Below are positions 12,954-32,000 of a DNA stretch of 32,000 bases, piece after piece. The position numbers were made by a program, and so were the translations under genes. The first letter of the stretch is position 1. Every line of letters starts with the position of its first letter. The stretch is from Candidatus Cloacimonadales bacterium (lineage in GTDB: Bacteria > Cloacimonadota > Cloacimonadia > Cloacimonadales > WRIO01). The stretch lies in contig CAXXTW010000002.1 of NCBI GenBank assembly GCA_963678255.2, positions 1,119,605 to 1,151,604 of the forward strand, in the 5' to 3' direction. The notes below the pieces were generated by a model. The model was not told the origin of the DNA and searched no databases. It worked only from the letters and a program-made list of their open reading frames with translations.

Positions 12954-13985
12954 ATGGATTTAATCAAATTTGGACTAATCGGTTGTGGCAGAATATCAGA
13001 AAGACACTTCGATGCAATCGATCAAATACCTGATGCTGAGATTATTACCTGTTGCGATATAATTGAAGAAAGAGCGAGAAATGCTGCACAAAAATATAAG
13101 TTAAAAAACTATTATACTGACTATATTCAGATGCTTGACACAGAAAAAATTGATGCAGTTTTAATATGTGGGCCTAGCGGTTTACATCCCCAAATGGGAA
13201 TAAATGCAGCTAATAGAGGGATTCATGTAATCTCTGAAAAACCTATGGGGATCAATCTTTCTCAAGCTGATGAATTAATTAAAGCTTGCGATATCAATAA
13301 GGTTCAGTTATTTGTTGTAAAACAAAACAGACTAAACCCTCCGATTCAATTATTAAAAAAATCTATTGAAAAAGGAAGATTTGGTAGAATATTCAGTGTA
13401 AATGCGACGGTTAGATGGACTCGACCTCAAAGTTATTATGATATGGCTAAATGGCGTGGTACTTGGGAGTTTGATGGTGGAGCTTATCTAAATCAAGCTT
13501 CACATTATTTCGATCTTCTTCATTGGTTAATTGGACCAGTAGAATCTGTAATGTCCTTTACTGCAACTTTAAATCATCAACTAGAAGTAGAAGATATGGG
13601 TATGGGAATTATCAAATTTAGAAATGGAGCTCTCGGTTCAATAGAAGTAACCATGAATACTTTTCCACGTAATCTGGAAGGATCAATTACTGTTATGGGA
13701 GAATTTGGAACGGTAAAAATTGGTGGCATTGCCGTAAATAAAATTGAGCATTGGGAATTTAAAGACTATGATGATGATGATAGATTGGTTACAGATTCGC
13801 AAACCGTTCCTTCCAATGTGTATGGATTCGGTCATATCGGATTTTTATCAAATGTAGTAGAAGTATTACAAGGCAAAGCAGAGCCAAAAACAGATGGCAG
13901 AGACGGCAGGAAATCATTAGAATTGATCTTGGCTATGTATGAATCTGCAAGGTCAGGGAAAAAGGTTGCTTTACCATTAAAGTAA
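12954..13985 (+). CDS. Gfo/Idh/MocA-family NAD(P)-dependent oxidoreductase (sugar dehydrogenase-like)
   Basis: N-terminal Rossmann motif KFGLIGCGRISERH and the EKP motif (VISEKPMG), at the typical ~340 aa length. Confidence 0.8.
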   Translation: MDLIKFGLIGCGRISERHFDAIDQIPDAEIITCCDIIEERARNAAQKYKLKNYYTDYIQMLDTEKIDAVLICGPSGLHPQMGINAANRGIHVISEKPMGINLSQADELIKACDINKVQLFVVKQNRLNPPIQLLKKSIEKGRFGRIFSVNATVRWTRPQSYYDMAKWRGTWEFDGGAYLNQASHYFDLLHWLIGPVESVMSFTATLNHQLEVEDMGMGIIKFRNGALGSIEVTMNTFPRNLEGSITVMGEFGTVKIGGIAVNKIEHWEFKDYDDDDRLVTDSQTVPSNVYGFGHIGFLSNVVEVLQGKAEPKTDGRDGRKSLELILAMYESARSGKKVALPLK

Positions 13986-13992
13986 TTATTTA

Positions 13993-14020
13993 TTGACAGG
14001 AAAAGCATATTTTATAAGCT
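13993..14020 (+). promoter_or_regulatory. Possible sigma70-type promoter of the isoprenoid/ether-lipid operon
   Basis: TTGACA (13993-13998), 16-nt spacer, TAAGCT (14015-14020), 35 nt upstream of the 14055 start. It sits in the only sizeable intergenic gap before the operon. Confidence 0.3.
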
Positions 14021-14054
14021 TAATCATGTGAAGTATTTAATATAAGGAGCCGAC

Positions 14055-14945
14055 ATGATCATACAAAAGTATTTTGAAGATAGAACTGAGATATTAAACC
14101 GTTGCATGGATGAATATTTAGTGGCAGCTGAAGAACACCCAAATGTTCTTTATGAAGCTATCCGTTATTCAATTTTCAATGGTGGTAAAAGACTCCGTCC
14201 AATTCTTTTAATGTCCACTTTTGAAATGTTAAATAAAACTGAGACTTATGAACAACTAAAACCAGCTTTGCCTGCAGCTGCTGCTATCGAAATGATTCAT
14301 ACAGCTTCATTAATTCATGATGATCTTCCATCTATGGATGATTCAGATGAACGCAGAGGACAACAAAGCTTACATAAAAAATATACTCCGGCTATTGCTA
14401 TCTTAGCAGGTGATGCTTTACTTACTAAAGCTTTTGAAGTTCTTGCCAAGATAGAAGATAAAGAAAAAGCTGTGAAATGTATTAGTATCATATGTCAGGC
14501 AGTTTCGACAAGAGGAATGATCGGAGGTCAGACAGTTGATGTAATTTCCTCTGATAAAAATAGTATCCAAATAAATGTTTTAAAATATATTCATTCCAAA
14601 AAAACAGGAGCATTATTGGAAGCTTCTGTAAAACTGGCTTGTGCTATGGCAGGTGCAGATGAAAATGTGACAAACACTCTTTCAACCTATGCGATGAACC
14701 TTGGTCTAGCGTATCAGATTATAGATGATATCCTGGATGATGTTGGGGATTTTGAAATGTTGGGTAAAGAACCTTATGAAGATGCACGCAACAATAAATC
14801 CACTTATCCTTCCATAATGGGACTTGATAAGGCAAGACGTTCTGCGGAAAAACTATTAGATGACTCCTATAAACTAATCAAGAACTTCCCCAAAAATCAG
14901 ATATTGGTTGAATTTGTTCGAATGATTAAGGATAGATTACCATAA
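14055..14945 (+). CDS. Polyprenyl diphosphate synthase (short-chain trans-IPPS; GGPP/FPP synthase type)
   Basis: First DDxxD motif region LIHDDLPSMDDSDERRG, second motif QIIDDILD, and GKRLRP. AGGAG RBS. Confidence 0.9.
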   Translation: MIIQKYFEDRTEILNRCMDEYLVAAEEHPNVLYEAIRYSIFNGGKRLRPILLMSTFEMLNKTETYEQLKPALPAAAAIEMIHTASLIHDDLPSMDDSDERRGQQSLHKKYTPAIAILAGDALLTKAFEVLAKIEDKEKAVKCISIICQAVSTRGMIGGQTVDVISSDKNSIQINVLKYIHSKKTGALLEASVKLACAMAGADENVTNTLSTYAMNLGLAYQIIDDILDDVGDFEMLGKEPYEDARNNKSTYPSIMGLDKARRSAEKLLDDSYKLIKNFPKNQILVEFVRMIKDRLP

Positions 14946-23859: not shown

Positions 23860-23935
<76 letters not shown>

Positions 23936-23950
23936 TTAATAACAGAGCGT

Positions 23951-24027
23951 GGCGGTGTAGCTCAGTTGGTTAGAGCGTCGGAATCATAATCCGCAGGTCC
24001 GGGGTTCAAGTCCCTGCGCCGCTACCA
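23951..24027 (+). tRNA. tRNA with anticodon CAT (elongator Met, or Ile2 if lysidinylated), CCA encoded
   Basis: 7-bp acceptor stem (two G-U pairs), D arm GCTC-AGTTGGTTA-GAGC, anticodon loop ATCATAA and T arm CGGGG-TTCAAGT-CCCTG. Met versus Ile2 identity cannot be settled by eye. Confidence 0.85.
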
Positions 24028-24052
24028 ATAAAGAATATAGTGTGATAAAAAT

Positions 24053-24076
24053 GCAACCACTCGGTTGCTTTTTTTT
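24053..24076 (+). terminator. Rho-independent terminator inside the tRNA cluster
   Basis: GCAACC-actc-GGTTGC followed by TTTTTTTT. Confidence 0.7.
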
Positions 24077-24092
24077 AATGATGAGAGATGAT

Positions 24093-24169
24093 GCGCCAGT
24101 AGCTCAGCTGGATAGAGCAGCAGCCTTCTAAGCTGCGGGTCAGGGGTTCGAATCCCTTCTGGCGTACCA
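24093..24169 (+). tRNA. tRNA-Arg (anticodon TCT), CCA encoded
   Basis: Acceptor GCGCCAG/CTGGCGT, anticodon arm GCAGC-CTTCTAA-GCTGC and T arm CAGGGGTTCGAATCCCTT. Confidence 0.9.
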
Positions 24170-24193
24170 TTTTAAAATATAATCAGTTTTCAT

Positions 24194-24269
24194 GGTGGCT
24201 GTAGTTCAATGGCAGAGCACCGGATTGTGGTTCCGGGCGTTGTGGGTTCGACCCCCATCAGCCACCCCA
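24194..24269 (+). tRNA. tRNA-His (anticodon GTG) with encoded G-1, CCA encoded
   Basis: An extra 5' G (24194) pairs with discriminator C. Anticodon arm CCGGA-TTGTGGT-TCCGG. T arm GTGGG-TTCGACC-CCCAT. Confidence 0.9.
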
Positions 24270-24280
24270 CTAATTTTTAA

Positions 24281-24308
24281 GCGAATCGAAAGATTCGCGT
24301 TTTTTTTT
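24281..24308 (+). terminator. Rho-independent terminator after tRNA-His (last core feature before the island)
   Basis: GCGAATC-gaaa-GATTCGC followed by GTTTTTTTTT. Confidence 0.8.
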
Positions 24309-24322
24309 GCTTATATTTCAAA

Positions 24323-24372
24323 TGTAATGTGACAGGTAAAACTGCAAAAAGTGACAGGTGTAATGTGACAGG
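24323..24372 (+). repeat. Cluster of TGTAATGTGACAGG / GTGACAGG direct motifs
   Basis: TGTAATGTGACAGG occurs at 24323-24336 and 24359-24372, and GTGACAGG at 24351-24358. The same 12-mer is inverted at 24476-24487 and 29365-29376. Confidence 0.85.
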
Positions 24373-24504
24373 CTAAATTGCAATTTATCTTTTCAAAGTG
24401 GAATACCGATCTAACTATCTATTTATTTGTAAGTTATGCAGACTGTAAAACCGTTTTTTCATTTGCAGTTTGAGGTGTCACATTACAATTGATCAAAATT
24501 GCAT

Positions 24505-24534
24505 TTGCAATGATCAGGATTCTAAATTTAAATT
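24505..24534 (+). promoter_or_regulatory. Putative promoter of the leader RNA, copy 1
   Basis: TTGCAA (24505-24510), 18-nt spacer, TAAATT (24529-24534). The segment is conserved in copy 2 (29396-29425, -10 TAAATA). It lies just downstream of the inverted 12-mer. Confidence 0.35.
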
Positions 24535-24540
24535 GAAAAA

Positions 24541-24793
24541 AACCATTGTTTGTAAACTGGTATCAAATCACTCGTTGCGTAAACTTCCAGTTAGCACATT
24601 CCTGCAAGCTGGCAGCTCGCTGAACGAGTTTCTTTCTCACCATAGGGGCTGGACGAGAAAGAGACAAGAATTTCGAGTCCGAGCCGAACTCGCTTCAAAA
24701 GGGCTTAACACCTCGAATTTAAATTTTATAATATCATTAGCATTTTGAATTCATTACACCTCAAAAATCGGAGAAGATTTGAGGCAATTTTTT
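24541..24793 (+). ncRNA. Candidate structured RNA or cis-leader, copy 1 (5' end approximate)
   Basis: Hand-found stems: 24542-47/24556-61, 24570-76/24623-29, 24584-90/24609-15, perfect 8 bp 24631-38/24655-62, and long-range 24672-77/24712-17. An intrinsic terminator CCTCAAA-12 nt-TTTGAGG plus T6 lies at 24759-24793. G+C is about 50% by hand count over 24569-24715, in an AT-rich context. Confidence 0.55.
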
Positions 24794-24953
24794 CTTTATT
24801 AGTAATAATATATTGCTAGATGTGTCAAGAAGACATCGATATAAAGAAAAATGGTTTTCTTTTCTTGGCAATGAAGAGAAGAGTGGTTAAAGGGAAGCTT
24901 ATCTATTTTGGACAGTCTCTAACAATGTGGCAATTCATGTGTGTAACTTTATA

Positions 24954-24981
24954 TTGACATTTTTTTTATTTTTTATATAAA
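24954..24981 (+). promoter_or_regulatory. Putative promoter of the HTH-S24 repressor gene
   Basis: TTGACA (24954-24959), 16-nt spacer, TATAAA (24976-24981), about 45 nt upstream of the start. This segment is absent from module 2. Confidence 0.45.
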
Positions 24982-25025
24982 TTGTTTTAAGTGTTCACAG
25001 AATTGAATGAGTTAAAGGAGATATA

Positions 25026-25655
25026 TTGGTCTCATATATGGAAACTTTTAGATTTAATAAAGCACTACTAGCTCGGGATATAAATGTGACGCAAGGGAAT
25101 ATCTCTGATTGGGTTAATGATAAAAAACCAAGTAAACCCTCTGTTATGGCTCTTGCTAAGATCAGAGAGGTCTATAATGTGAATATTAACTGGTTATTAA
25201 CCGGAGAAGGTGTAATGTTCTCTCCAGATTCAGATGGCCGCTTTTATAACCTAGGTGAATCTAATAAAGAAGAACTGGAAGAGATAAGTGGAAACAAAGC
25301 GGTTTATCAATATAAGAGCTCAAGTCTTGAATCCAGAACAATCGCTCTTCCTCTTTTAGGATTAATATCGGCTGATACTCCTCTTGAAATTGTTAATCCG
25401 GATTCCTGGAAATATATAAAAATCCCGAAAGCCTTCTTATGGGATAAGTATGACAATTGCTTCGTATTCAAGGTTAATGGTCAATCAATGGAGCCTACCA
25501 TCTTTCATGGTGACATCGTGGTAATCCATAAAAGAGATGACTGGTTCAATCTTACAGGAAAAGTCATTACGATCAGAACTTCCGATGGCATCACTTTAAC
25601 GAAAGTTCAATACGATGAAAACGCAGACAAATTTTTCTCATGCCCTTTAATATAA
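25026..25655 (+). CDS. XRE-type HTH plus S24 (LexA/CI-like) peptidase repressor; 3' end apparently frameshifted
   Basis: HTH region ARDINVTQGNISDWVNDKK...NINWLLTGEG. S24 catalytic Ser in VNGQSMEP and Lys in GITLTKV. AGGAG lies 5 nt before TTG 25026 (alternative ATG at 25038). The last ~28 homologous codons continue in the +1 frame at 25657-25743. Confidence 0.75.
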   Translation: MVSYMETFRFNKALLARDINVTQGNISDWVNDKKPSKPSVMALAKIREVYNVNINWLLTGEGVMFSPDSDGRFYNLGESNKEELEEISGNKAVYQYKSSSLESRTIALPLLGLISADTPLEIVNPDSWKYIKIPKAFLWDKYDNCFVFKVNGQSMEPTIFHGDIVVIHKRDDWFNLTGKVITIRTSDGITLTKVQYDENADKFFSCPLI

Positions 25656-25656
25656 T

Positions 25657-25743
25657 TTCGATATTATTGTTTTGTCAGAAGTAGAACTGATAAATGTAAA
25701 CATAATCGGCGAACTGGCTATGCAGTTTAGATTGTTTAAGTAG
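25657..25743 (+). other. Out-of-frame C-terminal tail of the S24 repressor gene
   Basis: The +1 frame reads FDIIVLSEVELINVNIIGELAMQFRLFK*. This matches the in-frame tail of the module 2 copy (YRIIVLSEEELDSVNLIGEMVMQFRMYR*). Alignment implies a 2-nt deficit near 25650-25656. Confidence 0.7.
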
Positions 25744-25753
25744 GAGATAATTA

Positions 25754-28700
25754 ATGGATATGGACTTAGTTTCAACAATTTACAATAGTTATATTCTTCC
25801 AATTATTATAAATGTTATAACCAATAAATTTTCAAACAATCTGCCTTCTACTGATAAATCATTACTTGAAAATGAAATAAGTGAGATTTATCATTCAACA
25901 ATCAGGATCTTTAACGAAAAATATAAAAATGAAAAGCATTGTGATTTTTTAGAAAAACAAGTAGTGCTTGAAGAATTGTTTAAATTTAGATATTTAGAAG
26001 GCTATATTATCGACAAGGATAAGCTACATGATACTCTTAATAATTATCAAGAGTATTTAACATTGAATGAAGAGCAAATAGAATTTTTCTTCAACTCTTT
26101 AGACATTGCATTTAAAAATAATCCTAAATTAAAAAACCTGTACATTAATGCAAATTTTCGTGAAGAGATTTTTTATATCTCAAAGGCAGTTGACAATATT
26201 CAAAACAATGTGATTAAGATCCTTCAGAAAATGGATGATAATTTCCAAGAAGGCCTCAAAGATCCGATTATTATGTTAATTAAAGATTTAAAAGTACAAA
26301 CCGCTTTAAATCTAATTCAAAATTTTGAAGATAAATATAACTCAAATCCATCAAATTTTAGTAATGATTTAGTAGGAGAAATCTTTTTACTAAAAGGGTA
26401 TTGTCAGAAGATACAATTCAATTTTTTAGAATCATATAAATCGTTCATTAATGCATATAATTATAATAAAGAAAATATAAAAATTATTAGAGAAGCTTGC
26501 TTTAGCTATTTTAAGTTAAATAATATTAAACACGAAGAGCTTATGGATATCCTTTATAATAAAAATCAATATGATCCAATCTATTGGGCAATCAAAATTA
26601 TTAAATCAAAATATGATTTTAGATTATTAAGCAAAGAATCATTTTTTTATATAATAAAAGATAAAGAATTCATAAGCTGTTGCTATTCAGAATGTTTATT
26701 TAATCAAAATTCTGATCTTGTTGAATTTGGTACAAAATTTGAAATTTATAACCATGAAGAAATCACTAAAACTGATATTAATGGAAATACTATTAATTAC
26801 TATATTTTTATTATGGATTGTTATTTATCAAAGTTGATTAAAGAGTCAAGAGAACAGAATATTGCAATATACGATATTGAGCACTCTTATCTTTATTCAC
26901 TTTTAGATAATCTAAATAGTTGCTTATTAAAAAGTGAATTAATGAACTTAGATAACTCAAAAATGATTTTCTTTTTGTTTTGGTTATTTAAATATTTTAA
27001 AGAAAATAACGAAGATAATATGCAAGTTTTATTGAATCATTTTAATGAATTAAACAATGTTGATGAACTAACAGCCGTTTTAATGACTAAAGCAATTATG
27101 AAAAGTGGCAGATTCTTAGATGGTGTAGCTTTGATAAATAAAAATGGACATTTTAATAATGAATATTTGATTTATTCTAAAAATCTATTTCACTTTCTCT
27201 CTGATAATAATCCAACAATTATATATAATTATTTTAATGAAATAACCGAAATTAATGATAACAATATACAATTTGTGCTTGATTTTGCACTTATATCTCT
27301 TCGAAAAGATATATCTATAAAAGACAATGTATTAGAAATAATTACTAAAAAGAAAATGGCAGAACTAAACAAGAAACAGCTTATCTTATTTATAAATTCA
27401 TTTTCTGAGAATGAACCTTTAAGTTTGGATAATTTAAATTCTTTAACTTCGATGTTCAATAAAGATAACCTTTATTATTACTTTGCAAATATTCTATTTA
27501 ACCATAAGATGTACTATGAATGTGTAGATTTTCTAGTAAAGAATGGATTTGAATATACTAACACTCAAGAATTTGATTTGATTATCAAATCTTTAATACA
27601 TGAGAATCAGAGATCTCGTTTATTATTAGATTATTTAATTTATTGGAGATTAAATTATGAGGGAAATGAGTATTATTTATTGAAAGAAATTGTGTTATTA
27701 TCTGTCATAGATCGTTGGGATGATGTATACGATCTCTCTAAAAATTTTATAAATAATAATAGTAATAGTCCTTATTATGATCCTATAAAATATAACTATA
27801 TTATGAGTATTGTTAACTTATCAAAAATTGAAGAAATTAAACACAATGCGAATGCAATAATAGATTTTAACTACTCAGATGAAAATCAAATTAAATATAT
27901 TGTACAACATTTATTTTTAAAAGGATTAACGAAACTCTCATTAGACTTATTATTTAAGAATGCGAATAACAAGAATAACAAAAATTGTAGAGCATATTTT
28001 TTTGCTAAACATATTGATTATATCTCTCTCTACAAAGAGTATGATATGGTAGAATTTGGTAGCAATGTTGTTTATCAAGCCAATGATAGTAAATATCAAA
28101 TGAAGATTAATAATTCTAATGATAAAATTCAAAGAGAGTTTATAGGTAAAAAGAAGGGAGATTTTGTAAAAATGAAGCTTTTATCTCAAAAAGAGTATTC
28201 TGTTGAGATAATTGCAATTTGTGACGATTATATAGCTTTATTTTATGAATTGTTAAATGAGTCTCTTGATCCTGCAAATAGCCTTGGAGTTGAGGTTATA
28301 ATATTTGATGAAAAAAATCCTGAAGAATTTAAAAATACAATATTAACAATGAGTAAAGAAAAGAGATTAAATGAAGATAATAATGAGTCTTCAATTGACC
28401 TATCAATAGATTTGTATAAAAACAAAAAAATATCTCTTTGGGAGTTAAGTTGTTTACATTTCAACGGATCTTATTTTCAAAGTCTATATTTTTTAAATAA
28501 TTATAATACTTGCATCCAGAATGAAGACATTCAAAATTTTTTTAACACACAAATATATAATAATTATTTCTTGGATTTGCCATCGTCATTTCAGCTGTAC
28601 AATATTTGTATAGAATTTAACATTAAAGTAGAAAAGTTTTTTATTTCTCATTCTGTTTTAAATTTGATTAAAAAAGAATTATACCAACTCAACGACAAAC

Positions 28701-29080
28701 TAAATGTAGAAAGTACAATTTATTCTGACGGAACAGATCTAGCATTAATACAAAATCAAAAAGATTTAGTAAAAGAATCAAGAAAAAAAATATTACAATT
28801 TGAGAGATGGCTAAAAGATAACACATTTGTTCAAACTCCTCAGGAAAAGCTTGAAATACCTCCCCAAAAGTTTAAGAAATTTAGTTTATTACATGAATAT
28901 GCAATAGATTATGTAATATTATCAAGAATTCCTAATACAGTTATCGTTACAGATGACTTTAGTTTTGGTTTTTATAAAAATCATTGTAAAAACACTATGT
29001 CATTTTTACAATACATATCTACAATAGAAATTGATAATCTCAATGACGTGGTTTCATTCATAAATGGGGGAGGGAAATAG
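25754..29080 (+). CDS. Large orphan protein (1108 aa), predicted alpha-helical/TPR-like repeats, possible C-terminal PIN-like nuclease domain
   Basis: AGGAG RBS overlaps the repressor-tail stop (TAGGAG at 25741-25746). Very AT-rich with an N/K/I/Y-biased composition. I found no Walker A motif. The C-terminal ~190 aa carry FLDLPS ... KKELYQ ... TVIVTDD, spaced like the acidic residues of a PIN fold. Confidence 0.8.
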   Translation: MDMDLVSTIYNSYILPIIINVITNKFSNNLPSTDKSLLENEISEIYHSTIRIFNEKYKNEKHCDFLEKQVVLEELFKFRYLEGYIIDKDKLHDTLNNYQEYLTLNEEQIEFFFNSLDIAFKNNPKLKNLYINANFREEIFYISKAVDNIQNNVIKILQKMDDNFQEGLKDPIIMLIKDLKVQTALNLIQNFEDKYNSNPSNFSNDLVGEIFLLKGYCQKIQFNFLESYKSFINAYNYNKENIKIIREACFSYFKLNNIKHEELMDILYNKNQYDPIYWAIKIIKSKYDFRLLSKESFFYIIKDKEFISCCYSECLFNQNSDLVEFGTKFEIYNHEEITKTDINGNTINYYIFIMDCYLSKLIKESREQNIAIYDIEHSYLYSLLDNLNSCLLKSELMNLDNSKMIFFLFWLFKYFKENNEDNMQVLLNHFNELNNVDELTAVLMTKAIMKSGRFLDGVALINKNGHFNNEYLIYSKNLFHFLSDNNPTIIYNYFNEITEINDNNIQFVLDFALISLRKDISIKDNVLEIITKKKMAELNKKQLILFINSFSENEPLSLDNLNSLTSMFNKDNLYYYFANILFNHKMYYECVDFLVKNGFEYTNTQEFDLIIKSLIHENQRSRLLLDYLIYWRLNYEGNEYYLLKEIVLLSVIDRWDDVYDLSKNFINNNSNSPYYDPIKYNYIMSIVNLSKIEEIKHNANAIIDFNYSDENQIKYIVQHLFLKGLTKLSLDLLFKNANNKNNKNCRAYFFAKHIDYISLYKEYDMVEFGSNVVYQANDSKYQMKINNSNDKIQREFIGKKKGDFVKMKLLSQKEYSVEIIAICDDYIALFYELLNESLDPANSLGVEVIIFDEKNPEEFKNTILTMSKEKRLNEDNNESSIDLSIDLYKNKKISLWELSCLHFNGSYFQSLYFLNNYNTCIQNEDIQNFFNTQIYNNYFLDLPSSFQLYNICIEFNIKVEKFFISHSVLNLIKKELYQLNDKLNVESTIYSDGTDLALIQNQKDLVKESRKKILQFERWLKDNTFVQTPQEKLEIPPQKFKKFSLLHEYAIDYVILSRIPNTVIVTDDFSFGFYKNHCKNTMSFLQYISTIEIDNLNDVVSFINGGGK

Positions 29081-29395
29081 AATCGTTTTTTCGCTTTTTC
29101 AAGCGTTTTTGCGAAAAAACGGCAGAGAAATATATGAGAGCTTATTAATGATTAATCAGAACTTTATTATTTTTAAAGAGTTACAGAATAATTGTCTGAA
29201 AAATCGACCGCAAAAACGATCTAAAATTGCAAAAAGAGTGTCACTTTTTCCAGTAAAAAGCCTTAAATAAGTGGCAAAGCTTGCAAAGTGAAAAATCGAC
29301 CTAACTTTATATAAATTATAAAGATAAAAATTCGTTTTTACGATTTTTCGCTTGCAGTTTGGGGTGTCACATTACAAATGGTATCAAAAATGCAT

Positions 29396-29425
29396 TTGCA
29401 ATGATCAGGATTCTAAATTTAAATA
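29396..29425 (+). promoter_or_regulatory. Putative promoter of the leader RNA, copy 2
   Basis: TTGCAA (29396-29401), 18-nt spacer, TAAATA (29420-29425). It is the only obvious promoter upstream of the module 2 cargo. Confidence 0.35.
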
Positions 29426-29431
29426 GAAAAA

Positions 29432-29684
29432 AACCATTGTTTGTAAAATGGTATCACATCACTCGTTGCGTAAACTTCCAGTTAGTACATTCCTGCAAGC
29501 TGGAAGCTCGCTGAACGAGTTTCTTTCTCACCATAGGGGCTGGATGAGAAAGAGACAAGAATTTCGAGTCCGAGCCGAACTCGCTCCAAAAGGGGTTAAC
29601 ACCTCGAATTTAAAATTTATAATATCATTAGCATTTTAAATTCATTACACCTCAAAAATCGGAAAAGATTTGAGGCAATTTTTT
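29432..29684 (+). ncRNA. Candidate structured RNA or cis-leader, copy 2 (5' end approximate)
   Basis: Same stems as copy 1, but three that are imperfect in copy 1 pair better here: ACCATT/AATGGT, CTTCCAG/CTGGAAG, and the 8-bp stem gains an extra A-T pair. Terminator CCTCAAA/TTTGAGG plus T6 at 29650-29684. Confidence 0.55.
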
Positions 29685-29809
29685 CTTTATTAGTAAGGAT
29701 TTATTGGTGTAGGTGTCAAGAAGACATCGATATGAAGTAAAATGGTTTACTTTTCTCGGCTATGAGCGGAAGGGTGGTTAAAGTGAAGCTTATCTATTTT
29801 GGACAGTCT

Positions 29810-30148
29810 CCGGAAATATATTGAAATCCCCAAAGCTTTTTTGCTTGACAAATACGATCATTATTTTGTATTTATGGTAAATGGAAGATCAATGGAGCCT
29901 CAGATCTCTCATGGTGACATCGTGGTTATTCAAAAAAAGATGACTGGTATAATCTTGGAGATAAAATTGTAGCAGTTCGAACTTCCGATGGCATCACTTT
30001 AAAGAAGATACAGTTTGAAGATAAGAGACGACAAATAATCTTGTCTCCACTCAATACAGAATATCGAATTATAGTCCTTTCAGAAGAAGAGCTCGATAGC
30101 GTCAATCTGATCGGTGAGATGGTAATGCAGTTTAGGATGTATAGGTGA
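29810..30148 (+). pseudogene. 5'-truncated, frameshifted remnant of an S24 (LexA/CI-like) peptidase gene
   Basis: Homologous to 25407-25743: IPKAFLLDKYDHYFVFMVNGRSMEPQISHGDIVVI... then, after a 1-nt deficit in the A7 run at 29932-29938, DDWYNLGDKIVAVRTSDGITLKKIQF...GEMVMQFRMYR*. The HTH domain and promoter are missing. Confidence 0.7.
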
Positions 30149-30855
30149 ATTATATGTGTATTGAATCAAAAACTGACGAAATTAGTTTAAGTAAAATTTA
30201 TACAGGGAAATGTAATCCAAAAAATCCAACTTGTATGGTAAAGGATGTATATGGTAAAGATTTGAAAGTACTTTTTATACTTGAATCTCCAGAAATAAAT
30301 GAAGTTATTAATGGTTGCCCTGCTTTTGGATCTGCAGGGAAAAATATATCTTCTAAGCTCACAGATTTTAAAGGAGATACAGAAAAAAAAGGTTTAGGAG
30401 AACTTATCAAAAACAAAGATCATCGAGCCAATAATTATGGAATTATTAATGTTTGCCAGCGCCCTTTACAATGTAGAGAATTATTAGAATACTTAAGGAA
30501 TAATATTAGTAGTAAACAAAATCTTAATAATAAACTAAATGGAGAGTTTAGTAAAAAAGATATTAAAAAAGATGAAGCGAAGATAATTCTTAAGGAAATC
30601 TACGATGATTTTTTAAGAAGGCTTCAGCATATTATACATTTCTCAAGTAATAATTTATTGATAATTCCATGTGGAAAATTTGCTGAATCATTTTACTTTC
30701 ATTTTTTAGAAAATTTTTCTAATAATAATAATTATAAAAAAATAGTTCAAGAAGATTGGATGAAAGGTTTTCCTCATCCATCAATGGGTCATTGGGGTAA
30801 AAACCCAAATAAAATAACTCAAATGAATAATTCAATATCTAAACATTTAAAATAG
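30145..30855 (+). CDS. Divergent uracil-DNA-glycosylase-superfamily (family-4-like fold) protein
   Basis: Motif order matches UDG family 4: FILESPEINEVINGCPAFGSAGKNISSKL (compare GEAPGxxEdxxGxPFvGxAGxxL), GIINVCQRP (compare NivKCRPP), LIIPCGKFAESF (compare ivxLGxxAa) and GFPHPS (compare HPS/HPA). GTG 30145 overlaps the S24-remnant stop (GTGA). An alternative start is ATG 30154 with AGGTGA 5 nt upstream. Confidence 0.55.
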   Translation: MNYMCIESKTDEISLSKIYTGKCNPKNPTCMVKDVYGKDLKVLFILESPEINEVINGCPAFGSAGKNISSKLTDFKGDTEKKGLGELIKNKDHRANNYGIINVCQRPLQCRELLEYLRNNISSKQNLNNKLNGEFSKKDIKKDEAKIILKEIYDDFLRRLQHIIHFSSNNLLIIPCGKFAESFYFHFLENFSNNNNYKKIVQEDWMKGFPHPSMGHWGKNPNKITQMNNSISKHLK

Positions 30856-30863
30856 TTTAACAA

Positions 30864-31772
30864 ATGTCAATTTTTGAAGATTTTAATCCAACCAATGAAA
30901 CCTACTGGCGAGCTGTAATTCTTTTTGAGAAAAATACTGCTTCGTATAAATTTGCATTAGCAAAGGCATTACTTGATTTTGCTAAAATTGAACAAACAAA
31001 TGTCTCTCTCAATGATTTGGCAATGTCCTATTTAGGGTACATATGTGAACATTTAAGATTATCAGACAGACAAGCAACAAATAGCTCAAGTACTTTGATA
31101 GATGCTTGTCGCCAATTTAATAATAATCAGATTACACATAATAATCTTATTGAGATTACTAAGCAAAATGGTTTTAGATATGTTTTTGATGCTTTTCATA
31201 ATGTTAATCAAGGAGAGTTACCTATCTCCTTTTTCAAAGTTGATAAAGGGAAAAGTATTTCACTCACAGATGATTTTCTGTCTTTAAAGGACAATAATCA
31301 ATTTTCTAATCTTCTTTTTGAAGTTGAATCCAGATGGAGATTGGTTGAGACAGCTTGGGATTTAAATATATCATACAATCTATTACAAGTTGAATATGAT
31401 AATGATGACAATATCTTAAAAATTATTGATAAAGATAAAAATAGAAGAGTAAGCATTACCTCAAGCAAAGATGCACTTAATGGGTATCAAAAAGGAAAGT
31501 GCTTTTATTGTTTTTCAGATATAGATATTGATTCAAATTCTAATAATCTTTCCGATGTTGATCATTTTTTCCCTTTTACTTTAGGACATACTAAAACTCA
31601 AAGCAATTTAGATGGTATTTGGAATTTAGTTTTTGCTTGTAAGAATTGTAATAGAGGGGATGGTGGTAAATTTGCACAACTACCTGATATAAAATATTTA
31701 GAAAGACTTCATAAAAGAAACAATTTTCTTATTGAGAGTCATCACCCTCTTAGAGAAACTCTTCTCCAATGA
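30864..31772 (+). CDS. HNH (beta-beta-alpha-Me) endonuclease with an uncharacterised N-terminal domain
   Basis: The C-terminal region CFYCFSDIDID...SDVDHFFPFTLGH...NLVFACKNCNRGDGGKF gives CxxC...DH...N...CxxCN. The N-terminal ~200 aa (YWRAVILFEKNTASYKFALAKALLDF...) are not recognised. Confidence 0.75.
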   Translation: MSIFEDFNPTNETYWRAVILFEKNTASYKFALAKALLDFAKIEQTNVSLNDLAMSYLGYICEHLRLSDRQATNSSSTLIDACRQFNNNQITHNNLIEITKQNGFRYVFDAFHNVNQGELPISFFKVDKGKSISLTDDFLSLKDNNQFSNLLFEVESRWRLVETAWDLNISYNLLQVEYDNDDNILKIIDKDKNRRVSITSSKDALNGYQKGKCFYCFSDIDIDSNSNNLSDVDHFFPFTLGHTKTQSNLDGIWNLVFACKNCNRGDGGKFAQLPDIKYLERLHKRNNFLIESHHPLRETLLQ

Positions 31773-31990
31773 CAAGGTCATCAAATGACAAAAGAGTTAT
31801 GTTTCTACAGAGACATTATAACTATGCTAAAGAAAGACTCATTTCTACATGGAAACCAAAATATGAATTATTAGAAATTATAAAAACTGAGGATGTTCGT
31901 GAAGACAAGAAAGGTGATTACTGGTTGAACATCTTTCTTAGAATATCCCCAGATCTAACGAACTGGGTTATACACATATCGCATCGCTGA
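31769..31990 (+). CDS. Small hypothetical protein (73 aa), start overlaps the HNH stop (ATGA)
   Basis: ATG 31769 overlaps TGA 31770-31772. No recognisable motif. It could be a coupled partner or a frameshifted C-terminal extension of the HNH gene. Confidence 0.4.
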   Translation: MTRSSNDKRVMFLQRHYNYAKERLISTWKPKYELLEIIKTEDVREDKKGDYWLNIFLRISPDLTNWVIHISHR

Positions 31991-32000
31991 TGCTGGGAGG

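Follow-up and report, generated by a model that had tools for sequence, protein, structure and literature searches.

The question raised by the locus described here is why a noncoding leader should be so much better preserved than the protein-coding sequence beside it. The locus lies in a stretch of 32,000 nucleotides (nt) from the genome of a Candidatus Cloacimonadales bacterium (contig CAXXTW010000002.1), which we refer to as the window and in whose positions all coordinates are given. Two modules stand in tandem there, each with a copy of the leader, a phage-type repressor gene or its remnant, and a block of downstream genes that we call cargo; the parts of the two repressors that can be compared are those for the C-terminal domain of the Peptidase_S24 type (S24-C). 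We consider it probable that the contrast between leader and coding sequence is a by-product of mosaic ancestry, in which a young cassette, either duplicated or homogenised, has come to lie within an old mosaic of phage sequences.

The contrast was measured by repeat finding, by global alignment and by per-segment statistics with Fisher exact tests. The repeat finder returned a direct repeat of 300 nt at 96% identity (24492-24791 and 29383-29682) and recovered the S24 segment as two pieces of 73-76%. In the global alignment the leader core is 96.1% identical with no gap columns, and identity declines through the leader tail to 74.5% in S24-C, where 17 gap columns are needed (Table 1). The three segments differ significantly from each other in divergence (core and S24-C, p = 2.6e-19; core and tail, p = 5e-4; tail and S24-C, p = 2e-3). 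A sequence-only reading of the window had already estimated by hand that the core was in the mid-90s of percent identity without indels, that the S24 segments were about three quarters identical with indels, and hence that the two differed in divergence; the formal alignment bears out all of this, although the length of ~255 nt assigned to the core was too short, since the block of high identity spans about 24492-24806 (~315 nt). Across that interval the two leader copies are separated by 13 evenly spaced substitutions and are nowhere identical over more than 40 nt. At the left junction there is a 2-nt indel between the copies and their right flanks are unlike; copy 1 holds an extra 487 nt (24919-25405, with a promoter and a helix-turn-helix (HTH) domain) that are missing in copy 2.

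The age of the coding segments can be judged from their relatives, for which we use P-numbers for repressor homologues and L-numbers for the loci that were fetched for comparison (256 kb in all). The S24-C domain of copy 2 is 94% identical in amino acid (aa) sequence to the repressor of L032 and to P0003, and from 29811 to its stop codon it is ~93% identical in nucleotide sequence to L032. That of copy 1 is 84-85% identical at the aa level to P0002 and P0004 and, from ~25140 to its stop codon, ~90% identical in nucleotides to L001, whereas the two copies in the window share only 61% aa identity with each other. By these alignments, the S24 segments did not arise from a duplication followed by divergence in place; they belong to two old lineages, A and B, which circulate among Cloacimonadota, so that their 75% identity records the age of the A/B split and provides no clock for the leader. 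The phage Mu-type ends that adjoin the leaders are lineage-specific as well: the one before copy 1 (B) resembles those of L032 and L034 (90%) and the one before copy 2 (F) resembles that of L001 (87%). The comparisons thus support, at the level of sequence, a common ancestor of the leader copies that is much more recent than that of the flanking coding sequence. The sequence-only reading had proposed that noncoding sequence here outlasts its coding neighbor; the contrast itself stands, but the premise that both had diverged in place falls with the recognition of the two lineages. Its suggestion that recombination or gene conversion recently acted on the leader alone fits, as a recent duplication would, the younger ancestry of the leader in comparison with its flanks.

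Among the homologues, P0005 (L037 4-534) looks recombinant, with the first part of its C-domain lineage-B-like and the rest lineage-A-like. In the window itself, both repressors are decayed and pseudogenised. Relative to L001, copy 1 has 1-nt deletions at 25618 and 25654, in addition to a scrambled N-terminus, and a Thr replaces the first Lys of the ITLKK motif of its relatives, a residue that aligns here to the S24 catalytic Lys; the lineage-A repressor is either non-cleavable or dead. The deletion at 25618 lies in an A-run, that at 25654 is outside any homopolymer, and the frameshift of the lineage-B remnant at 29933 lies in an A7 run and is accompanied by two substitutions.

Each module is, by its gene content and layout, the left arm of a Mu-like transposable prophage, composed of an HTH-S24 c repressor, cargo and an attL-type end of ~300 nt; the assignment follows from the match between the layout in the window and that of Mu-like prophages, in which a repressor, a motif-rich block and a terminus succeed each other. 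The repressor open reading frame (ORF) at 25026-25655 combines HTH and Peptidase_S24 domains of the phage type in matches to Pfam and PHROG, and has only 11 homologue clusters in a large protein collection. Its distant homologues P0006 and P0008 (55-60% identity), with which P0007 groups in an alignment of the C-domain, adjoin a divergent Ner-like gene and genes for MuA (Mu-transpos_C), MuB/TniB, DUF3164 and MuF. In L011 and L012, short contigs of lineages A and B that hold the closest repressor relatives, the repressor is directly preceded, on its upstream side, by a Ner-like gene and a MuA-like N-terminus. Downstream of the repressor in L005 and L010, ~350 nt with many CGTTTTTGC and GCAAAAACG motifs lead up to a terminus that reads ...GGGTGTCAACTTACA; these are independent insertions, which have nothing in common beyond ...GGGTGTCAACTTACA. 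In the same way, homology stops right after ...GGTGTCACATTACA (...TTACA) at five junctions, namely window positions 24489 and 29381 and those of L001, L032 and L034. The sequence GTGTCACATTACA, which had been entertained as the end of an insertion sequence (IS), was rejected in that role and is the Mu-like terminus.

The phage arms in the window are remnants only, as neither MuA/MuB transposase genes nor virion genes were found there in the ORF list or in Pfam scans. Remnant B is 90-91% identical between 24368 and 24488 to ends in the Cloacimonadota metagenome-assembled genomes L032 and L034, and contains an inverted repeat of 31 nt that is 87% complementary; a motif scan for the Mu terminus gave 7 matches against 2.0 expected. 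The pentamers that flank remnant B (TCAAA and ATTGA) do not match each other as a 5-bp target duplication would, and no inverted second terminus was found in L001 or L032. End F is 86.7% identical over 308 nt to L001 13340-13645 and has analogous ends in the Mu-like prophages L005 and L010. As a whole, remnant B is a 167-bp element (24323-24489) that stands right after the tRNA-His terminator and resembles a collapsed "mini-Mu" with an extra solo terminus. L005 (1422-11115) and L010 (1987-11150), from two different genomes, carry the same Mu-like set of ~9.5 kb (c, ner, MuA, MuB/TniB, DUF3164, a 514-aa portal-like protein and MuF), with no second terminus over a distance of 10 kb; capsid and tail genes are likewise not in view, and the set could represent either a prophage that has been truncated or an element akin to a satellite. 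On the minus strand of L032 (3460-3475), the 3' end of a tRNA-Gly gene, ...GCTCCA followed by TTTTTTTGATTGACA, mirrors the ner ribosome-binding-site region of L012 (325-345), ...CCTCCA followed by TTTTTTGATTGACA, and from this likeness the lytic genes of L032 seem to have been deleted through microhomology between the CCA end of a tRNA and the ribosome-binding site of ner.

Table 1. Features of the locus and segment comparisons between its two modules (window coordinates)
Feature	Position	Strand	Description
tRNA cluster Met-Met-Arg-His	23860..24269	+	Host anchor of the locus
Mu-like remnant B, miniature	24323..24489		Two inverted termini TGTAATGTGACAGG (24323, 24359) plus terminal 122 nt of a lineage-B left end, finishing ...GGTGTCACATTACA at 24489
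Leader copy 1, core	24490..24806	+	AT-rich 5' part, GC-rich hairpin cluster 24556-24700, promoter-like site, hairpin and U-tract
Sigma-70-like promoter (putative), TTAACA-16-TATAAT (11/12)	24705..24732	+	Faces downstream genes; identical site in copy 2
Intrinsic-terminator-like hairpin	24759..24800	+	CCUCAA..AUC/GAU..UUGAGG, then CAAUUUUUUCUUUAUU; the 96% block stops here
Leader copy 1, tail	24807..24918	+	Right boundary of repeat
ner 5' end/operator remnant and repressor promoter TTGACA-18-TAAATT	24919..25025	+	Absent in copy 2; aligned to L011/L012
c repressor, lineage A (HTH and Peptidase_S24), decayed	25026..25743	+	Pfam, PHROG, alignments
Cargo 1	25754..29080	+	1108-aa protein, 24% GC; homologue (~65% aa) after the repressor in L037
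Mu-like left end F of arm A	29081..29381	+	CGTTTTT/GCAAAAA-type repeats; finishes ...GGGGTGTCACATTACA at 29381
Leader copy 2, core	29382..29697	+	Better folded than copy 1
Promoter-like site TTAACA-16-TATAAT (11/12)	29596..29623	+	Sole strong promoter candidate upstream of cargo 2
Leader copy 2, tail	29698..29809	+	
c repressor remnant, lineage B	29810..30148	+	S24 C-domain only, from about codon 127; frameshift at 29933
Cargo 2	30145..32000	+	236-aa protein (no match), 302-aa HNH endonuclease (PtuB-like), next ORF to window end
Comparison: final 38 nt 5' of leader	24452-24489 vs 29341-29381		87%; 3 gap columns
Comparison: leader core	24500-24806 vs 29391-29697		295/307 identical (96.1%); 0 gap columns
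Comparison: leader tail	24807-24918 vs 29698-29809		96/112 identical (85.7%); 0 gaps
Comparison: S24 C-domain	25406-25743 vs 29810-30148		246/330 aligned bases (74.5%); 70.9% with 17 gap columns counted

The leader is a discrete block of 429 bp in copy 1 and 428 bp in copy 2, and the two copies form direct repeats 4.9 kb apart that are ~93% identical overall. In both, the left edge comes right after the Mu-type terminus, and the right edge (24918 and 29809) gives way to two different contexts, the ner 5' end and repressor promoter remnant in copy 1 and codon ~127 of the lineage-B repressor in copy 2; it is this recurrence of the same ends in differing surroundings that defines the block. A short hairpin stands at its left end, and an island of 145 nt (24556-24700) with three strong hairpins reaches 48% GC, as compared with 32% for the window and 51% for the tRNAs. 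The terminator-like hairpin has 9 bp, begins 25 nt past the promoter-like site and is paired in both the minimum free energy (MFE) and the centroid structures; it was not flagged by a terminator scan whose loop limit was 8. A further promoter-like site (9/12) spans the left junction of copy 1 at 24462-24489, and its counterpart in copy 2 fails the scan. Predicted folds are more stable than those of shuffled sequences on either strand, with z-scores of -2.9 (+) and -3.2 (-) for copy 1 and -5.5 (+) and -6.2 (-) for copy 2, and with MFE values of -71.7 kcal/mol for copy 1 and -84.8 to -85.5 kcal/mol for copy 2. The asymmetry of G-U pairs, as a clue to the functional strand, is split between a helix that favors the plus strand (24628-24665) and one that favors the minus strand (24674-24692).

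Attempts to assign the leader to a known class were negative. A protein-coding role was rejected, as a TAG codon cuts short the 92-codon ORF in copy 2 and the copies differ in this ORF by 6 nonsynonymous and 2 synonymous changes; no ORF homologous to it has been called among 5.8 billion proteins, and tblastx against all loci was empty. Membership in a known RNA family was likewise rejected, since only tRNAs reached the gathering score of Rfam 15, and at E <= 10 the best matches of the two leader copies (E ~0.4-10) fell far below the family cut-offs. The core had no blastn match among phages and plasmids; six exact 18-21-mers of the leader and a 19-mer of the Mu terminus revealed no leader core in IMG/VR; an exact 20-mer found none in the GTDB representative genomes, the 13 matches of an 18-mer in JGI metagenomes were all due to chance, and nhmmer detected none in the 256 kb of fetched loci. 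At the orthologous locus of L001 and L002 the repressor comes immediately after this same tRNA cluster (Met, Met, Arg, His), with no intervening leader, and in L032 another tRNA cluster likewise directly precedes the repressor. By comparison with these loci, the leader is an addition to the locus, and the cassette is at present an unclassified, strongly folding orphan element that is so far known from this genome only.

What has kept the two copies alike can be approached through the substitutions between them. Eight of the 13 fall in predicted stems, where a paired fraction of 0.60 would lead one to expect as many by chance, and none of the 13 is compensatory, although a comparison of two sequences has low power to reveal such changes. 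Most of the substitutions break a pair in copy 1, several of whose helices are broken where those of copy 2 are perfect, and to thread one copy onto the structure of the other costs 7-15 kcal/mol. Set against the modeled structures, this pattern resembles neutral decay after recent copying and gives no positive sign of selection on structure; the strong purifying selection on the RNA that the sequence-only reading had offered as one explanation is thus not demonstrated by the changes themselves.

The account that we favor starts from arms A and B as products of two old phage lineages that have lost their lytic genes. The cassette might have been copied once and recently. Alternatively, and as we prefer, the sister copy 4.9 kb away would be the only possible recombination partner for each leader, so that the copies would homogenise each other, while the flanks would be overwritten by incoming Mu-like phages of either lineage in tracts bounded at the exact transposon terminus. 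By either route, lineage-specific flanks would come to abut a homogenised or young leader. The cassette itself could be a noncoding unit for expression or insulation, in which the GC-rich hairpin cluster would halt incoming transcription and the sigma-70-like promoter, followed by the hairpin and U-tract as an attenuator, would feed the downstream operon of repressor and cargo. In module 2, the cassette would replace the promoter that was lost together with the HTH half of the repressor; with both of these gone and the leader site the sole strong candidate, the leader may supply transcription to arm B. The direct repeats would also make arm A a unit that might be deleted or amplified.

Several observations weigh against this account. 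The core is better kept than its own tail (3.9% as compared with 14.3% divergence), which a single, neutral and simultaneous duplication would not predict, and the 96% block coincides with the putative transcription unit, which would begin at the junction and close with the terminator U-tract. For these two reasons, some constraint on the core, or an extra degree of homogenisation in it, is likely. That Mu ends of two differing lineages meet the leader at one and the same base, to within 2 nt, would be explained in our analysis only by an argument from conversion or targeting, and the entire comparison rests on two leader copies.

The observations on the core lend themselves to the view that it is a functional structured RNA gene, or a single-stranded DNA element, and that strong purifying selection alone holds its copies at 96% identity. 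The stable folds on both strands, a GC island whose composition is near that of the tRNAs, the superior preservation of the core relative to the tail and the match of the block to a unit that would start at the promoter-like site of the junction and stop where the U-tract ends (24800) all speak for it. We nevertheless consider it unlikely, since the substitutions hit stems as often as chance would have it, with no compensation and at a considerable cost on threading, the scan does not pass the junction promoter in copy 2, a relative has no leader at its orthologous locus, and neither an Rfam family nor a homologue was found in the GTDB representatives, the JGI metagenomes, IMG/VR, phages or plasmids.

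A history that we regard as similarly improbable is that the whole block of Mu end, leader and repressor was duplicated long ago and that a later tract of gene conversion, confined to the core, reset its identity. The collinear homology of end, core, tail and S24-C, with its stepwise identities of 87, 96, 86 and 75%, would be natural under such a history, and direct repeats 4.9 kb apart favor conversion. Each flank, however, is closer to sequences of other genomes than to its counterpart in the window, and the flanks are therefore not old paralogues that diverged in place; the even spacing of the core differences and the lack of a long identical tract mean, moreover, that no very recent conversion is visible.

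It is rather more doubtful that the leader is mobile as a non-autonomous element, which would have inserted twice by homing to the outward side of Mu-type termini. Both copies share their left and right ends, their right flanks are unrelated (ner' region and repressor codon ~127), and their left flanks are Mu termini of two lineages that are joined to the leader at the same position. Like IS1111/IS4321 elements and the palindrome-associated transposable elements (PATEs) of the IS200/IS605 group, the leader lacks a target-site duplication and any clear terminal inverted repeat. The former target the inverted repeats of the Tn21 family and the latter integrate on the 3' side of short motifs, TTAC among them; the left flank of the leader finishes ...TTACA. 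On the other hand, the ORF list and Pfam disclosed no cognate recombinase or transposase (Y1/TnpB or DEDD) in the window, a hairpin is present at the left end only, with none that is convincing in a subterminal position at the right, and the best terminal inverted repeat (at most 9/12 by hand alignment) is not significant. The only likeness of the leader to the Mu terminus, GGTATCACATCACT with 3 mismatches, is at the level expected by chance, and just two copies are known, both in the 32-kb window. The traits of a miniature inverted-repeat transposable element were also not in evidence, as no inverted repeat joins the ends of the leader and the flanks (ACAAT/ACAAA and GTCTC) show no duplication.

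In L001 an IS481-like DDE element (13633-14691) is inserted exactly at the Mu-like terminus; its transposase is 99% identical to one in L027 (265-1347), where an array of clustered regularly interspaced short palindromic repeats (CRISPR; 1690-1900, repeat GTATAAATCTATCTGACCCGATTTAGGGGGTTGAAAC) adjoins the element. With the boundary of the IS set by comparison with L027, derivation of the leader from this element was rejected and the two are unrelated, since 651 of 2000 shuffles reach the similarity of their ends.

A bolder version of the homing idea, which we hold to be quite improbable, is that the cassette represents a noncoding module of a novel type, whether as structured RNA or as folded DNA, with a promoter and attenuator of its own. 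It would home, or be recruited, to the outward side of Mu-type ends and re-arm truncated arms there. If true, such a module would give promoterless defense cargo a start of transcription and make each arm excisable and exchangeable. Scenarios that invoke a long target duplication, a Mu-X-Mu structure or a Campbell-type integration were set aside, as each needs an extra coincidence to yield the four junctions. Finally, a chimeric or collapsed repeat in the assembly, at which the frameshifts in both repressors could hint as indel errors in A-runs (25618 and 29933), can be practically dismissed, because the copies differ at 13 scattered sites, at the left-junction indel and in their right flanks, because the 29933 frameshift comes with two substitutions and that at 25654 is outside a homopolymer, and because the repressor gene is recorded on a contig of 1.84 Mb, presumably the one to which the window belongs.

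The cargo of the arms appears to be exchanged independently of the leader. The 1108-aa protein of cargo 1 has no match in Pfam, NCBIfam, PHROGs or PADLOC, and PADLOC found only weak HNH matches in the cargo of the window. Among the relatives, the 1108-aa family recurs in L037, a DpnII/MboI-like set occupies L001 and L002, and GmrSD occupies L032; the swap points are the stop codon of the repressor and the start of the conserved Mu-like end. The sequence-only reading had envisaged the leader as a recombination hotspot for the exchange of cargo, an idea that the relatives do not sustain, since L001, L032 and L037 lack the leader and carry differing cargo between the same flanks; the leader is thus not the site of exchange. 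An arrangement of HTH-S24 repressor, variable cargo and Mu-like end is found directly after tRNA clusters in three Cloacimonadota genomes (window 23860-32000, L001 9400-13632 and L032 503-3900 on the minus strand), and such arms are, from their gene content, a candidate defense hotspot of transposable phages. At the left edge of the window, away from the modules, two head-to-tail units of 71 nt, 96% identical to each other, lie at 319-460 and overlap the start of a small ORF (369-611).

We see the main value of these results as a correction, in that the conservation of noncoding over coding sequence in phage-derived regions need not mean selection, and neighboring genes can be alleles of differing age that were joined by recombination. 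The results also indicate that remnant Mu-like arms, with their repressor, swappable restriction-like cargo and transposon end, persist beside tRNA clusters in the uncultured phylum Cloacimonadota. If the leader is transcribed, it would constitute a lineage-specific regulatory RNA or a portable promoter.

Several known systems bear comparison with this locus. Concerted evolution by gene conversion is familiar from rRNA operons and from the tufA/tufB pair, and the leaders recall these cases as two direct repeats that are far more alike than their surroundings; they depart from them in having no long identical tract and only two copies, and conversion would here be a matter of inference. The target-specific insertion sequences (IS1111/IS4321, the IS200/IS605 PATEs and the IS110 elements with their bridge RNA) are brought to mind by a structured noncoding leader at a fixed place by the terminus of another transposon, with neither a target-site duplication nor terminal inverted repeats. 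Unlike them, the leader has no cognate recombinase in view, no significant complementarity to a target and no hairpin at its right end, and it is situated beyond the terminus, not inside it.

Temperate phages are known to keep defense or moron genes at particular hotspots, such as rexAB beside the cI gene of lambda and the hotspots of P2 and P4. The arms resemble these in that unrelated restriction-like or unfamiliar genes are swapped between conserved flanks beside an immunity gene, and differ in that the flanks are a repressor stop codon and a Mu-type end and that the role of the cargo in defense is putative.

The placement of a repressor at the left end of transposable phages is well established, and the c-repressor arm of Mu-type phages provides the closest parallel to the modules as a whole. 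A repressor at the left end has also been described for the hankyphage of Bacteroides (PMC12135933). The window differs from such phages in that it keeps only the arm, without transposase or structural genes, in that its arms come directly after a tRNA cluster and hold swappable cargo between repressor and end, and in that two of them stand in tandem, each preceded by an extra noncoding cassette. What the window and these phages have in common is a repressor gene that points to a transposon end finishing ...CA, a divergent Ner-like gene and MuA/MuB upstream of it in the intact relatives, and a homology that is lost exactly at the terminus.

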